Shown piece by piece: positions 3,094-42,672 of a stretch of DNA of 64,000 bases. The position numbers were made by a program, and so were the translations under genes. Below the pieces are notes generated by a model that saw only the letters and a list, made by a program, of their open reading frames with translations, ran no database searches and was not told where the DNA came from. How positions within the stretch are numbered: position 1 is the stretch's first letter; each line of letters opens with the position of its first letter. The DNA is from Dictyostelium discoideum. Lineage: Eukaryota. The stretch covers positions 7,712,001 to 7,776,000 of the forward strand of contig CM000151.3 in the NCBI GenBank assembly GCA_000004695.1. The letters run 5' to 3'.

Positions 3094-3119
3094 AGCGATC
3101 TATTTTGATTTTTAAAAAG

Positions 3120-3191
3120 CTCCCTGTCCGGGAATTGAACCCGGGCCTTTCGCGTGACAGGCGAAAATCCTCACCACTAGACCAACAAGGA
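3120..3191 (-). tRNA. tRNA-Asp, anticodon GTC
   Basis: The reverse complement is TCCTTGTTGGTCTAGTGGTGAGGATTTTCGCCTGTCACGCGAAAGGCCCGGGTTCAATTCCCGGACAGGGAG (72 nt). It has a 7-bp acceptor stem, an anticodon loop CTGTCAC, a TTCAATT T-loop and discriminator G. A T5 run (CTTTTTA) follows immediately downstream. Confidence 0.9.
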
Positions 3192-5197: not shown

Positions 5198-10630
<5,433 letters not shown>

Positions 10631-26675: not shown

Positions 26676-26757
26676 TGTAAGCTAAGGGATTCGAACCCTT
26701 GTATCAATGATATTGCAGCCTTAATGCAACCCCTTAGACCAGCTCGGGCAAGCTTAC
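26676..26757 (-). tRNA. tRNA-Leu, anticodon AAG (type II, long variable arm)
   Basis: The reverse complement is GTAAGCTTGCCCGAGCTGGTCTAAGGGGTTGCATTAAGGCTGCAATATCATTGATACAAGGGTTCGAATCCCTTAGCTTACA (82 nt). It has a perfect 7-bp acceptor stem, a D-loop GAGCTGGTCTAAG, an anticodon stem-loop TTGCA-TTAAGGC-TGCAA, a 12-nt variable arm and a T-arm AAGGG-TTCGAAT-CCCTT. It is followed by ATAATTTTTG. Confidence 0.88.
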
Positions 26758-36047: not shown

Positions 36048-36806
36048 ATGAACAATAATAATAATAAAATAAAAATAGAAAAAGAAATAATAAATGAACT
36101 TTGCATAAAAGAAAATTCATTTTATTTAAAAAATATATTAAAATTAATAAACTACAAATATTATAATAATAATAATTTAACAGAATTACAGAGAGTTCAA
36201 TTAAATAATATTATATTAAATATAAAATCACCATATAGATTAATAAAACAAGAATATTTTAATATTTCAGTTGAAGAGATTGAAAAAAATGTTGACTTAT
36301 TTAATGATTTAAATGATCATATTGATTATATTGAAAAAGTTGCAACCCATTTCTTAAATAATATTGATTTGATTCATATATTTAATAATTTATTAGATGG
36401 TTATTATAATTTTGAAAAAGAATTAATTAAAAGAATTTTTACAAGAAATGAAAATAATAATAATAATAAAAATAAAAATGGTGATATATTTTGTGATATT
36501 GTATCAAATTCTTTATTATTATTTGAAGATTTAAAATATAGAGAACTTTCAATTTCAAATTTAAATAAATTATCTACAATAAAAGAAAATATAAATTATT
36601 TTTCATTTATTGGAAATAGTGATAACTCAAATCTAGAAAATAAAAAAAATCAATATTATTATAATTGTAAATTTGAAAATTCAGAATATTCATTAAAACC
36701 GGCTCATCAAAATGCGACTTACCAATTTTATAATAATTTATTTCCAAATAAAAATGAATTAATATCTCCAACTCAATTAATAATTGGTTTTAATTTATTA
36801 AATCCA

Positions 36807-36853
<47 letters not shown>

Positions 36854-37397
36854 TAATTCAAATAATAATAATAATAATTTAAATAAAAAAAATGAAATAT
36901 TATCATTATTTACAATTAAAAAATCAAAAGAGAAACAAGAGAATTTTCAAAATATTAAAAAATTAATTTTTCATAAACCTGAAATTATTGATAAAATTGA
37001 TATTGAAAGTTATAGTGCACATTTTATAAGTAGTTTATTATTTTTCCAAAATGATTATGAAATTAATTGTTCAGATTTTACAATTAGAGTTTGTAGTAAT
37101 AATAATAATGATGATAATAATTTTCATTCAATTGAAAGGGATGAATTATTTACAATGACAAATAAAGAATGTAAACAAATTAATATTCAAATTAGAACTT
37201 CAAATATTTTATATACTCTTTCAAATTTAATGTCAAAACCAATTCATCAATCAATTGTAAATTTTATTCTCTCACAAAATCCAAATATTTTCATAATGAA
37301 TTGGTTAGTTTCATTATATAATAAACAACAATCAATATATCAAAAAATGTATACTGAATCAATGAAAATAATAACTGATTTATCTTCTATAAATAAC

Positions 37398-37432
<35 letters not shown>

Positions 37433-38051
37433 TAATAATAATAATAATAAAAATAATAATAATAATAATCATATTATAAATAATAATAATATTGGTATAT
37501 TAAATCAATTATTTTTAAATTTTGATGAAGGTTTAATAAAAGAAATGTTAGATAGATTTAAAAAAATTCAAAAAATTTTAAAAAGATCTTTAAATAATAA
37601 TAATAATAACAGTGATAATAATGATAATAGTAATAGTGAAAAAAAATTAATTACACATTATGATTTATTAAAGAAAATAAAACCAGTTACTTATTATTAT
37701 TATATGGCATTATCATATGAATATATTGATCCATATAATAATATATATAAACATGATTATATTGATTTATTAAGAAGGAATCCTCCAAAAGATATTAGAA
37801 AATTTAATAAATTATTATTATCACAAGATTATAGGGAAGGAAATATTCAACATAATAAAATCTCTTTAAAAGAAGCAATTCAAGAATTAATTTTAAATTC
37901 ACCTGTTAAAGATTTTACAATTAAAAATCAACAACAACTACTACAACAACAAAATTCAGAATCATTCATTAAAAAATGGAAATTAATGATTGAATCTTTA
38001 AATTTAACAGACTTTAAATATCATCAATCTTGGTTAAGCCAATCAATTTAA
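36048..38051 (+). CDS. Asn-rich hypothetical protein of 667 aa in a single exon, with no recognisable domain
   Basis: ATG at 36048. There is a continuous ORF with Dictyostelium-typical poly-N insertions. Confidence 0.5.
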
Positions 38052-38159
38052 TTTTAAAAAAGAAAATAAAAACAATAATAATAATAATAAATAATTAAAA
38101 AAAAAAACAAATCAACAACTTTTTTTTTTTTTTTCTCAAAACCTAAAATTATGTTTGAA

Positions 38160-38345
38160 TAAGGAAATATGGTAAAATAAATAAAATAAAAAATAAAATA
38201 AAGAATAAAACAAAACTTAACTCAAATAGGTGATAACATTTAAATACAAAAATTCCCAACCCAATCCTCGGGTAGGTCTCACTCTCTTTTTTTTTTTTTT
38301 CAGATATTTTTTTTTTTTTTGATTACTATTTTTAGATTTTTTTTT
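38160..38345 (+). repeat. Copy A of a dispersed ~190-bp repeat, about 80% identical to copy B at 40265..40470 and in the same orientation
   Basis: The shared blocks are atgtttgaWtaaggaaata ... ctcaaataggtKaYaacatttaaatacWaaaaYtcccaaccYaatcctc...cactcWctc-(T)n-attaYtatttttagattttttttt. Confidence 0.7.
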
Positions 38346-38721
38346 CTTTTACTTTTTTATTTTCCGCCTTAAAAAAAAAAAAAAATTTTTTCATTTGAAT
38401 TAAAAAAAATAAATAAAAAAAAGATTTTTATTTTATTTTTTAAATAAATGAGACATATGATGTCATTAATATTTTTTATTTTATTTTTCCTAGAAATAGA
38501 TATACATTGTTGATATTGCCTATTCAATGAAGTTAACTTTATTTTTTTGAGTCCCAACAAAACTTAAAAAAAAAACTATTATTTTAATTTTTAATTTTTT
38601 TCAAAAAATAAATATCTAACGATATTTTTATAGTTTTTTTTTTTTTATATAAAATTAACATGGTTTTTTTTTTTTATTTTTTTATTTTATTTTCAAACCA
38701 AAACACGTTACACGAAAAAAA

Positions 38722-39531
38722 ATGACTACTATGCTTAAAGAATCATATAAATTAATATTAATATTATTCGTATCATTATTTGTTACATGCTCATTATGTA
38801 TCAATTATCAACCAACCACTGATGATGATTTAAATTCATCTGAACCAACTCAAAAATGTGTATTTGTTGATGATGATGGAAAGACTATTGATTTGACTCC
38901 AATCCAAGGGTACTTATTATAATATAAATTAATTTAAATCTTCCACCCAAACTAACCATTTTTTTTTATTTTTTATTTTTATTTTTTTATTTATTTTATA
39001 GGGGTTACTCTTATTTTGATGCACCAAGCGGTACTGAAGTATGTAGTTAAATTATAAATACATAATTATTAATTTATTTTTTTATTTAAAATTGTATGGA
39101 AAACTTTGTTTTTTAACTTTATTTTTATTTTTTTTTTTAATTTTTATTTTTAGTATCATTATGGAATTTGTTCACCAAATAAATATTGTCAAAAATTATT
39201 AAATACAGATGTTGAAATTGAATCATGTGGTATATTCTCATCACCAAATGTAACATATGCAATTAGTTTATTTGATAGTAATACAAATTCAGTTCAAGTT
39301 TATACAGAAGTTACAAATTTATTTTATTATAGAAATGTTGGTGTAAATGTTTGTCCAGGTAATGGTTTAATGTCAATGCAATTAGAATTAAATTGTAATT
39401 ATTATTTTAATTTTACTGTCCATACTGTTTTACAAGCTAGAACTTGTAATACCATAATTTCAATTGGTACAATTCATGCATGTGAAGCCGGTAGTAAACC
39501 AGATGATACTCATGTTTCTTTAAATATTTAA
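38722..39531 (+). CDS. Small secreted protein of about 200 aa with a possible MRH (mannose-6-phosphate receptor homology)-like domain. Exons are 38722..38909, 39002..39038 and 39154..39531.
   Basis: The signal peptide is MTTMLKESYKLILILFVSLFVTCSLC. Donor GG|GTACTT is phase 2 and acceptor ttttatag|G follows it; donor GAA|GTATGT is phase 0 and acceptor tttag|TAT follows it. The mature region reads KCVFVDDDGKTIDLTPIQGGYSYFDAPSGTEYHYGICSPNKYCQ...C...C, which fits the MRH Cys/Tyr spacing only loosely. Confidence 0.45.
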
Positions 39532-39805
39532 AATAAAATTTAATTAAATAACTATATTTAGTATTTTCTTAAAATAAATCATTATATTTTGAATATAATC
39601 AAAAAATGAGATGTTGTTTTTATACTTTTTTATTATATGTTAATATAGACGTTATTAATTTACAAAATAAAGGTAAAAGTGTTTTTTTTAATAAATGATA
39701 ATTTTTTTTTTATTTTTTAAATAATTTTTTTTCTTTTTTTAAATTACTTATTAAGTTCACAAGTTTTATAAAATTCAAATACCCTTTGAGTTGATATTAA
39801 AGTTA

Positions 39806-40239
39806 TATTTACATATTATTTTAAATCACTATTGTTAGGAAATTGCGATAGCAAATTATTAGAATACATTTTTGCTTTTTCAATAGCCTCATTGGTTAGG
39901 TTGATAGTTTGATCCATTGCAATTTGAATTGAACCACATTGTTAAGTAATTATTTTAACCAAATTAACAAAACTTTTTTCTTTAAATTCTTTTTTGAATG
40001 ATGAACAATCATTTACTAAAATGCCAACTGAACCAATCCAAAAAATAAACTCTTTAAAATTTTCAGAGTATTTAATGTTATTTGATAAAGTAAGATGTAA
40101 TGAAAAACAAGCTATACAATGTCCATGACCACCATCAAGAGCTCTTAAATTTAAATAATAAATAGGTTCATATTTAATAAAACATCATTTGACTTATTAA
40201 TATATTGAGAAAATGATTTTTCAATAAATCTTGAACCCA
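39806..40239 (-). pseudogene. Terpene synthase (class I, microbial-type) pseudogene fragment. It covers only the C-terminal part, including the NSE/DTE metal-binding motif, and is interrupted by stops and frameshifts.
   Basis: The minus strand reads MGSRFIEKSFSQYINKSNDVLLNMNLFII*...DGGHGHCIACFSLHLTLSNNIKYSENFKEFIFWIGSVGILVNDCSSFKKEFKEKSFVNLVKII...AMDQTINLTNEAIEKAKMYSNNLLSQFPNNSDLK*. NDCSSFKKE matches ND(L/I/V)xSxxKE. There is no upstream DDxxD region. It lies immediately downstream of repeat copy B on the minus strand, at the copy's 5' edge on plus coordinates. Confidence 0.5.
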
Positions 40240-40264
40240 TGACCCAATCTTTTGTAATCAAAAT

Positions 40265-40453
40265 GTTTGATTAAGGAAATATTGCAAATCCCAAAATAAT
40301 ATTCTCTAAAAATGGGATTTAATTTTAAAATAAAAATAAAGTCTTTCTCAAAAAAATAGGTTATCATTTAAATACTAAAACTCCCAACCTAATCCTCAAG
40401 TGTGCAACGCACTCACTCATTTTTTTTTTTTTTTTAATTATTATTTTTAGATT

Positions 40454-40470
<17 letters not shown>
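40265..40470 (+). repeat. Copy B of the dispersed ~190-bp repeat (see 38160..38345)
   Basis: Aligned by eye; about 80% identity over roughly 150 nt plus a T-run. Confidence 0.7.
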
Positions 40471-40506
<36 letters not shown>

Positions 40507-40527
40507 AAAAAATATCATTTAATAACA

Positions 40528-42040
40528 ATGAATAAAATTGTAATAATTAAAAATCAAACCATAATTATAAAAATTATAAATTATTTAACATCATTTTGGG
40601 TTAGTGGTGGTAAATTTGGAGATTCATCGTCAAATGAAATGTTTTCATTAGTTTTTATTGGGATAGTACGTGATTTATCAATGGTTTCAAAGGAATGGTA
40701 TAATACAATAATACCAATTGGATTGAAATTACCACAATACTATCTACTAAATGAAAGTGAATTATTGAATAAAGGAATTAAAAGAATGATTAATTCAAAA
40801 TCAATATTCATTAAATTAGGTAGTGTTACAAATGCTAATCATAAATCTAGATTATTAAATGAATTCAGTGATTCGATATCATCGATTACATTAAAACCAA
40901 ATTTCAATGCAACTGATATAAGTAATAGTAACCAATTCAATATTAAACCATGGTGTTTTAAAAATTTACAAAGTTTACAACTAAATTTAGGAGATTATCC
41001 AAATTGGAAAATTTATTTAAATCATTTATTCCCAATTAATCAATTCAATTCACAAATTAATGCTACAAATGATCAATTAGAATTATTAAATAAATTACAT
41101 AATGATTCAAATTGTGTTAATTTAACATCAATTAATGAAATTACAAATAATAATAATAATAATAATTATTATAATTTTGATTGGACAAATCAATTGAAAA
41201 CTTTAATATTAGATTTCACCACTACCACTACCAACACTACAAATGCCACCACTGATTTTGATTTAACAATTTTTGATAATTTCATTAAATTGGGTGGTTT
41301 TTATAAATTAAATACTTTAAAATTGAAATCAAATTTAAAGAGAGTTGATGGTTTATGTTCAGAATTAACCAAAAAAGTTGAAACATTTCAATTATATGGT
41401 ATTAGAATTGATAGTGAACAAATTTCAAAATTACTTGCATCAACTTCAAATAATTTAAAATTCTTTGAAACTTCACAATGTTTACCATTAATTGGATCAA
41501 AATCAATTTGTGAAACTTTGAAATCAATTTTTTCAAATTCAAATAATTCTTGTAAATTAGAATCATATCATCAAACTTCATACTCTAATGAAGATTTAAA
41601 TGATTTAATATCACTTTTATCATCATCAAATAATGAAAATTTTAAATCTTTGAAAATTAATAGTCAAATTGAACTTTCAAAAAATTCAAACTCCAATAAC
41701 AATAACAACAGTGGTAGTGGTAGTAGTATTGGTTATAATCAATCATCAATTCAATATCTATCATTAATATTACCAGACACAAGTTTTTGTAAATTTATTT
41801 TCTCAAAAGTTTCATTTAAATTAACAACTTTAAATCTTAAATTTATAAGATTCTATTCATCAAATTTAAACGATAAATTAAATAATGATACAGAAATGAT
41901 TGATATTATAATTGAAATTTTAAAAAATCAAAATCAATCTTTAAAAATTTTAAAAATTCAAAATACTATTTCAGATTTAGATAAATTAAAACAAAATCCA
42001 ATTAATTGTTCAATTTCAAAATTATTATCTTTTATTTGTG

Positions 42041-42078
<38 letters not shown>

Positions 42079-42672
42079 AATGAAATTGAAATTGAAGAGA
42101 ATCAATTAGAAGAGATTAATTTAAGAAATTTTTGGATTTCAAAAGAAACAATTATAACAACATTATCATCATTTAATAATAATTCAAAATCAAAGGTTAA
42201 ATCATTCTATATTTCAGGTTTATCTGATTTTAAGCCAACTGATATTAGTCATACTTTATTATCAAATGATACAATTTGTAAATTAATTTCATTTGGAATT
42301 TCACTAATGTCAATTAAAGATAGGGATGATAATAGTAAAACCACTACCGCCACCACCACCACCTCTTTAAAAAACAAGTTTTCTTCTGCTTTTAGAAATA
42401 CATTTTCAAATATTAATGAAATTAATGATTGTGATAAAAATTATTTAAAACTTTTAATTGAAATTTTAAAATCAAATAAAATAATTCAACATATTGAAAT
42501 TAATACACCAACACATCAATTCACAACTGGTTTGGAGGAACTAATATCAACAATTAAAAATAATAAAACTATAGTTTCAATTGGTTTAAATATAAATAAT
42601 AATAATTTTATTAATCAATGTTTAAATAATAGTATTTATCCATACTTTAATCCACCATCAATTAATTATTAA
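40528..42672 (+). CDS. F-box-like/leucine-rich-repeat protein, cysteine-containing LRR type, 714 aa in a single exon
   Basis: The ATG is at 40528; the ORF-track start at 40504 is TTG. The N-terminus IIKIINYLTSFW...MFSLVFIGIVRDLSMVSKEWYNTI is F-box-like. Repeated L..L.L..C/N periodicity follows. The region around MFSLVFIGIVRDLSMVSKEWYNTI looks F-box-like by eye. Confidence 0.55.

Follow-up and report, generated by a model that had tools for sequence, protein, structure and literature searches.

Two direct copies of a short segment on chromosome 2 of Dictyostelium discoideum are best explained as the neutral relic of a single old and small intrachromosomal duplication, which took in at least 340–360 bp of ordinary chromosomal DNA; we put the probability of this reading at about 0.8. 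The copies lie in the region around DDB_G0277227, within a 64 kb stretch of DNA that was analysed as a whole (the window) and that shares 99.74% identity with GCA_054883475.1 across 22 kb.

Two collinear copies and their neighbours

The features of the locus, in window coordinates, are:

36048..38051, plus strand: gene for a 667-aa protein (open reading frame; also called as a gene in GCA_054883475.1)
38003..38150, plus strand: A-side left portion of the duplicated unit (end of the 667-aa coding sequence, stop codon and 3' flank)
38151..38345, plus strand: copy A, the stretch noticed earlier (nhmmer match 38148-38287, E 2.9e-27)
38225..38253, plus strand: best-conserved block of copy A, AATAGGTGATAACATTTAAATAC, with the TATA-like TTTAAATA inside
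38254..38269, plus strand: C-rich core of copy A, TCCCAACCCAATCCTC (exact 16-mer match)
38286..38345, plus strand: T-rich tail of copy A (T14, CAGATA, T14, GATTACTATTTTTAGA, T9)
38722..39531, plus strand: MRH-domain gene DDB_G0277227, 200 aa, two introns (splicing worked out; called as a gene)
39819..40270, minus strand: terpene-synthase-like pseudogene piece (PF19086, 37.5 bits, E 2.7e-9)
40263..40470, plus strand: copy B, duplicate of window ~38151-38345 (nhmmer match 40264-40414, E 5.2e-29)
40382..40397, plus strand: C-rich core of copy B, TCCCAACCTAATCCTC (exact 16-mer match)
40528..42672, plus strand: gene for a 714-aa protein (open reading frame; called as a gene), with its ATG ~60 nt past copy B

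The two copies in the same orientation, first described in an earlier note on this DNA, are real, as collinear blocks common to both stand far above chance. The right ends given there hold (~38345 in copy A and ~40465-40470 in copy B, where the common right block ATTAYTATTTTTAGA and its T-run end), while the left starts shift from 38160 to 38151 and from 40265 to 40263, the positions at which the common left block ATGTTTGAWTAAGGAAATAT begins, with a start-to-start spacing of 2112 bp. The figure of about 80% identity is right for the conserved blocks (mean column identity of 80% in MAFFT) but not for the whole unit, which is 69.5% identical over 243 columns of a gapped BLAST alignment (E 2e-27); a 46-nt block around the core is 87% identical. 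Allowing up to three mismatches, the 16-mer TCCCAACCYAATCCTC has three matches in place of the 0.30 expected, and the two exact ones are copies A and B. With its T-runs removed, copy B finds copy A alone in the 64 kb window (E 1.9e-9), the next best match being of low complexity (E 0.002).

Seven copies from four strains were used to build a profile HMM, which finds exactly two matches in the 64 kb window, two in the strain locus L003, two in L004 and one in L002, and no copy in 14 kb of D. firmibasis. The description of the repeat as dispersed is thus unsupported, there being no third copy in the window, and a low-copy dispersed family is excluded only within the 64 kb window and the strain loci. 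A scan of metagenome contigs with a 22-nt core pattern gave 0 matches, and a literature search for the core string returned unrelated papers only.

The MRH protein matches AX4 DDB_G0277227 at 100%, and the 714-aa protein has 100% identity with ACTFIT_004727. Pfam searches found no domain in the 667-aa or the 714-aa protein, and a check for paralogy between the two was negative, so the flanking genes are not paralogs. The terpene-synthase-like piece, which adjoins the left edge of copy B, contains a frame shift and stop codons, and a search for its paralogs gave no usable homologs. It is unannotated and no gene is called there. We also considered the repeat as a promoter or 5' exon of a minus-strand terpene-synthase-like gene and rejected this, as the frame is not conserved across 6–8 nt indels and no minus-strand gene lies downstream of copy A. 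Some copies do show an ATG preceded by an A-run and a possible GT..AG intron.

Extent of the duplicated unit

In the FIW strain the copy-B side reaches ~150 bp further left than in the window. Here L003 9621-9982 aligns with window 38003-38363 over 393 columns at 70% identity (E 3e-42), the homology including the 3' end of the 667-aa coding sequence, which supports a local segmental duplication, one of the explanations that the earlier note had listed. The left ~85 nt of the match, ~90% identical, run from the end of this coding sequence across the stop codon into the 3' flank, so that the final ~45 nt and the stop codon of the 667-aa gene fall within the duplicated unit. The Smith-Waterman score of the left extension is 73, compared with a mean of 20.7 and a maximum of 38 for shuffled sequences (0/1000 shuffles reach 73). 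Since the homology enters the 3' end of the 667-aa gene, the unit consists of ordinary chromosomal DNA and is not confined to the segment seen in the window; the 190–200 bp noticed earlier are the part that survives in both copies of this strain. The duplicate of 38003..38150 survives in FIW only (L003 9621-9766). A residual 3' end of the 667-aa gene at window 40190-40263 was tried as a candidate and rejected, 973/1000 shuffles scoring as well, and a search for rightward homology past the T-runs into the downstream genes found none.

As the left extension is seen in one strain only, it could in principle have arisen by a later A-to-B gene conversion in the FIW lineage and not belong to the original unit. 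Even so, the homology would remain local and non-mobile.

Strain comparison and conservation

Copy A occupies its orthologous site in each of the four strains. Copy B is found in three of them, being present in FIW, decayed in FIY and deleted in FIR, which keeps only its T-rich tail. The FIR gene corresponding to the 714-aa gene is intact (697 aa) despite this loss. The orthologous positions of the copies, in strains whose 714-aa proteins are 91–94% identical, place the duplication before the split of these strains. The outgroup D. firmibasis has its MRH ortholog among different neighbouring genes, and that locus contains no repeat copy and no ortholog of the 667-aa or 714-aa genes.

Copy A is 94, 91 and 76% identical to its counterparts in FIR, FIW and FIY, respectively, the adjacent intergenic DNA 90, 90 and 83%, and the introns 87–96% (FIR and FIW) and 75–92% (FIY). 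Copy A therefore diverges like the neighbouring intergenic DNA and introns and shows no extra conservation. The C-rich core, which is conspicuous because it is the sole non-AT-rich stretch of the surviving copies, has an 8-nt deletion in copy A of both FIR and FIW and a 6-nt deletion in copy B of FIW, and is substituted in both copies of FIY. Most columns invariant across all seven copies fall in the block 38225..38253 and its immediate flanks. Both copies carry the TATA-like TTTAAATA followed ~40 nt later by T14–T16 and then by further T-runs, with the box altered in copy B of FIW to TTTTAGATA. The near-universal retention of the block ATAGGTGATAACATTTAAATAC among the copies leaves room for some function.

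Alternative explanations

Two similar direct pieces of ~200 bp, with a fairly sharp left edge in the window strain, are what remnants of a dispersed transposable element family (solo LTRs, a MITE or non-LTR 3' ends) might look like, and the earlier note had proposed such ends or solo remnants. The evidence makes this highly improbable. In FIW the homology extends into coding sequence at the 3' end of a host gene, no third copy is found in the 64 kb, in the loci of the other strains or among the metagenome contigs, and both copies are fixed at orthologous sites and decaying. A search for terminal inverted repeats around either copy found only complementarity of A-runs with T-runs, and at the end of the unit its own strand has T-runs and no poly(A) tail; the flanks of both copies are T-rich, so that a target-site duplication is not definable. 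Elements of the TRE type were judged by a tRNA gene within ~50–100 bp, and since the only tRNA genes of the window (3119-3191 and 26676-26757) are more than 11 kb from the copies, these are not TRE-type elements. LTRs were judged either by a pair surrounding retroelement genes or by many dispersed solo LTRs with TG...CA ends. The interior here comprises a host MRH gene with introns and the terpene-synthase-like fragment; the former is the intact intron-bearing gene already noticed between the copies and now confirmed as DDB_G0277227, and its presence argues against an LTR pair. There is even less chance that the copies belong to a small ncRNA gene family (Class I-like, snoRNA or a Pol III transcript ending at the T-run), another of the early suggestions. 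On the plus strand a T-run lies past the conserved core, where it would serve to terminate Pol III transcription, and the folding of copy B is stronger than that of shuffled sequence (z -2.55). However, copy A shows no such signal (z 0.64 and 0.01 for its two strands), RNA folding of each strand of each copy revealed no common structure, the hairpins being specific to copy B, and the core carries frame-independent deletions of 6–8 nt in other strains. At gathering thresholds an Rfam search of the whole window finds only the two tRNAs elsewhere, and at E up to 10 the region 37900-40700 yields matches at chance level and no family at threshold. The DUSE, whose consensus is reportedly [AT]CCCA[CT]AA, was searched as WCCCAYAA and is absent from both copies, as is the 11-nt Class I motif (consensus CCTTACAGCAA, up to two mismatches), and window counts of both are at or below chance.

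More can be said for a promoter. The Dictyostelium core promoter is said to consist of a TATA box followed by oligo(dT) before the start site, and the succession of a TATA-like box and T14–T16 in both copies fits the early suggestion of a shared promoter module, which is possible but has weak support. The block containing the box is also the best-kept part of all seven copies, and ~60 nt separate the end of copy B from the start codon of the 714-aa gene. In a functional reading, a plus-strand Pol II module would have been duplicated and retained, with copy B driving the 714-aa gene and copy A the MRH gene. Against this, FIR lacks copy B apart from the T tail yet has its intact 697-aa gene, and in FIW the box of copy B is altered. 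Copy A lies 480 bp from the ATG of the MRH gene, which has its own proximal TATATAAAAT and T-run at 38647-38690, is conserved no better than the flanking spacer, and has no counterpart upstream of the D. firmibasis MRH ortholog. We therefore regard a retained functional module as unlikely. Copy B may incidentally supply the 714-aa gene with an upstream TATA-like box and oligo(dT), and a promoter role for it is possible but dispensable. It is similarly doubtful that the duplication brought a ready-made cassette of TATA and oligo(dT) which was then co-opted in the AX4-like lineage as the proximal promoter of the 714-aa gene. If this were true, a promoter would have been born from a locally duplicated piece of a neighbour's spacer. 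Being still polymorphic among D. discoideum lineages, some of which have it intact, some decayed and some not at all, it would offer a natural experiment in promoter turnover.

Proposed history of the locus

Under the local duplication that we favour, the unit would have contained the final ~45 nt and the stop codon of the 667-aa gene together with ~300 bp of the AT-rich spacer behind it (~38003-38345/38363). Its duplicate would have been placed ~2 kb further downstream, in the interval that separates DDB_G0277227 from the 714-aa gene, possibly by unequal exchange or templated repair near T-runs. Both copies would then have drifted as non-coding DNA, probably with no function as a unit, while copy B was eroded by lineage-specific deletions. 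FIW would have kept the full unit, and the AX4-like lineage would have lost the left ~150 bp of copy B, which the terpene-synthase-like piece now adjoins; in FIY only a decayed copy B would remain, and in FIR all but the T-rich tail would have gone.

The biological weight of the finding is small: it is an example of a decaying duplication that resembles a repeat element or motif in an extremely AT-rich genome, a resemblance that arises because few non-AT-rich blocks stay recognisable. Neither should these loci enter a repeat library nor should the C-rich 16-mer be taken as a regulatory motif before a genome-wide count. The strain comparison also shows that intergenic DNA of the D. discoideum complex turns over rapidly through deletions.

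Comparison with known systems

The complex repeats of Dictyostelium (TRE5/TRE3, DIRS-1, Skipper, DGLT-A, DDT, Tdd and thug), compared here by description, are similar to the copies only in that a non-coding segment of a few hundred bp is repeated, whereas the copies lack tRNA association, terminal inverted repeats, LTR-type ends, poly(A) and multiple occurrences in the window. Class I RNA genes have a DUSE ~60 nt upstream and the 11-nt motif beside a 6-bp terminal stem (PMC7919456). The copies share with these DUSE-driven RNAs a short C-rich motif with three consecutive Cs, an AT-rich spacer and nearby T-runs, but their motif is off the DUSE consensus and is not conserved between strains, and they have no TGTG box at +60, no 11-nt motif and no terminal stem. 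The likeness to a Dictyostelium Pol II promoter is a matter of sequence layout only: both copies have TTTAAATA with T14–T16 ~40 nt on, and copy B is immediately 5' of a gene, but copy B is dispensable in FIR and 480 bp separate copy A from the next ATG. The copies most resemble a small segmental duplication within one chromosome that has left a decaying gene-fragment relic: they are direct and collinear, ~2 kb apart, their homology takes in the unique 3' end of a host coding sequence with its stop codon and flank, they diverge in a neutral-like manner, and lineage-specific deletions have worn down the redundant copy. In contrast to a typical segmental duplication, the unit is very small (~0.35 kb) and is nearly all AT-rich spacer, and in the reference-like strain only 190–200 bp of it are recognisable, so that it mimics a discrete repeat element.

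The two copies and their surroundings

The look-alike stretches A and B are best explained, with a probability of roughly 0.8, as a neutral remnant: a small segment made up of a gene 3' end and its downstream spacer would have been duplicated locally long ago and later trimmed by lineage-specific deletions. Reading of positions 37900-40800 and alignment of both stretches confirmed the two direct copies reported in the earlier note, with left ends corrected by a few bases. They sit in a window of 23.6% G+C (which matches GCA_054883475.1 at 99.74% identity across 22 kb) among the following features:

Features of the window, in order of position
3119-3191, minus strand, tRNA-Asp(GTC)
26676-26757, minus strand, tRNA-Leu(AAG)
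end at 38051, plus strand, 667-aa gene
38151 (ATGTTTGAATAAGGAAATAT) to about 38345, same orientation as copy B, copy A
38722-39531, plus strand, MRH gene, two introns
39819-40270, minus strand, terpene-synthase-like pseudogene piece (Pfam PF19086, 37.5 bits, E 2.7e-9)
40263 (ATGTTTGATTAAGGAAATAT) to about 40470, same orientation as copy A, copy B
40528-42672, plus strand, 714-aa ORF

The two tRNA genes, each found by both Rfam and ARAGORN, are the sole matches of these tools in the window. Located between the copies, the spliced gene of 200 aa is AX4 DDB_G0277227, which encodes an MRH-domain protein, and the 714-aa ORF matches a D. discoideum protein at 100% identity, with orthologs (91-94%) in three other D. 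discoideum or cf. discoideum assemblies. The terpene-synthase-like piece is disrupted by one frame shift and by stop codons in frame; it represents the C-terminal metal-binding region, NSE-type motif VNDCSSFKKE included. No gene is called over 39819-40270 in GCA_054883475.1, neither of two protein searches returned a close homolog, and the 3'-most ~230 bp are also found in strain FIY, while strains FIR and FIW lack the piece. In the stretch that separates copy A from the MRH gene, at 38549-38565, lies a second short C-containing motif, GAGTCCCAACAAAACTT, which reads GGGTCACAAC in FIR, lacks three bases in FIW and is missing altogether from FIY; it resembles the start (TCCCAAC) of the C-rich 16-mer core of the copies, a likeness that is probably due to chance.

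Starting 2112 bp apart, the copies share collinear blocks: ATGTTTGAWTAAGGAAATAT; a poorly conserved AT-rich spacer of 45-70 nt; CTCAAA..ATAGGT..A.CATTTAAATAC.AAAA.TCCCAACCYAATCCTC; a short variable stretch; CTCACTC and then T14-16; and finally ATTAYTATTTTTAGA with a T-run after it. They are far more alike than chance would give. When its T-runs are left out, copy B has copy A as its sole match in the 64 kb window (87% identity across 46 nt, E 1.9e-9), and the core occurs three times at up to three mismatches versus 0.30 expected, both exact occurrences being copies A and B. Alignment of the complete units gives 69.5% identity in 243 gapped columns (E 2e-27); the identity of 80% first given for them holds for the shared blocks but is optimistic for the unit. 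The spacer of copy B contains a hairpin (AAATCCCA-N19-TGGGATTT, 40286-40320), nearly kept in FIW and missing from copy A. This hairpin and GTGTGCAACGCAC at 40400-40412 account for the fact that copy B folds better than shuffled sequence (z -2.55).

The description as a dispersed repeat is not supported, since the 64 kb window holds only two copies. A profile HMM built from seven copies recovered exactly those seven, two of them in the window, and found no third copy in the window, nor any in the 14 kb surrounding the MRH ortholog of D. firmibasis (67% identity; last 14 kb of CM069765.1). This ortholog is located at the end of a chromosome contig amid different neighbouring genes, with no 667-aa or 714-aa ortholog within 10 kb, and synteny around DDB_G0277227 is thus not conserved. 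Scanning metagenomes for a 22-nt core pattern gave no match, and a literature string search for the core returned unrelated papers only.

Extent of the duplicated unit

The copy-B side is longer in FIW, where positions 9621-9982 of the locus (L003) align to window 38003-38363 (393 columns, 70% identity, E 3e-42). [quoted passage not shown] The duplicated unit is therefore a piece of ordinary chromosome, 340-360 bp or more in length, that begins inside the host gene, which favours local segmental duplication, the third of the candidates that the earlier note had considered. A 190-bp element with its own boundaries does not describe this unit. Identity is ~90% in the CDS-derived piece versus ~70-80% in the spacer part, which fits one old event, in which the CDS-derived piece would have been free to drift on its B side only. 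The window lineage has lost the left ~150 bp of the B side, and the terpene-synthase-like piece adjoins copy B instead; similarity of 40190-40263 to the A-side left part is not significant (973 of 1000 shuffles score equally well). To the right of the T-runs no A/B homology was found, nor was any paralogy of the neighbouring genes. Just past the 667-aa stop, an (AAT)n microsatellite (38075-38090) has about 5 units in the window and is expanded to roughly 35-40 in FIW (L003 about 7930-8080).

Comparison of strains

Orthologous 22-kb loci of four assemblies were aligned between the stop codon of the 667-aa gene and the ATG of the 714-aa gene, and all seven recognisable copies were aligned separately. 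Copy A occupies the same place in all four lineages. Copy B occurs in the window and FIW, is strongly decayed in FIY (L004) and is deleted in FIR (L002) save for its T-rich tail. The core is intact in the window lineage only: 8 nt are missing from copy A of FIR and FIW and 6 nt from copy B of FIW, and both FIY copies carry substitutions. Copy A of the window is 94, 91 and 76% identical to FIR, FIW and FIY, and the spacer beside it (38346-38721) 90, 90 and 83%; MRH introns range over 87-96% (FIR, FIW) and 75-92% (FIY), and exons over 89-98%. Since copy A diverges like spacer and introns, copy B is deleted in FIR and decayed in FIY, and the core is altered in the three other strains, the repeat evolves like unconstrained non-coding DNA. 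The interval from the MRH gene to the 714-aa gene measures 996 bp in the window (39532-40527), 489 in FIW, 488 in FIY and 173 in FIR (L002 9828-10000), differences that represent large deletions with T-runs at their bounds.

Alternative explanations

Remnants of a transposable element, also proposed in the earlier note, are not supported: there are no terminal inverted repeats beyond A/T runs, the unit's own strand ends in T-runs and so lacks a poly(A) tail, the nearest tRNA gene is >11 kb away, extra copies are missing from the window and the D. firmibasis locus, and the homology continues into host CDS. Nor is a family of non-coding RNAs. Rfam gave no match to the copies even at E up to 10, copy A has no fold signal (z 0.64 and 0.01 on the two strands) and the hairpins are specific to copy B. 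Class I RNA genes feature a DUSE and an 11-nt motif (PMC7919456), and a search with a consensus string for each gave no match in the repeat.

A TATA box followed by oligo(dT) is the classical Dictyostelium promoter layout. In favour of a functional promoter module, both copies have a TATA-like box and then oligo(dT), and copy B lies directly upstream of the 714-aa gene. However, FIR lacks copy B and that of FIW has a changed TATA-like box. Copy A lies 480 bp from the ATG of the MRH gene, which has its own proximal TATA and T-run, and copy A is conserved no better than its surroundings. Such a module is improbable, as is a dispensable promoter contribution from copy B. A minus-strand reading (ATG after an A-run and a possible intron, into the terpene-synthase-like piece) was rejected, as it has no conserved frame and no minus-strand gene lies downstream of copy A.

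Under the duplication reading, a small local duplication of the 667-aa gene 3' end and downstream spacer would have come first, and lineage-specific deletions would then have trimmed the copies. Copies A and B would thus be a fresh instance of a well-known kind of event.
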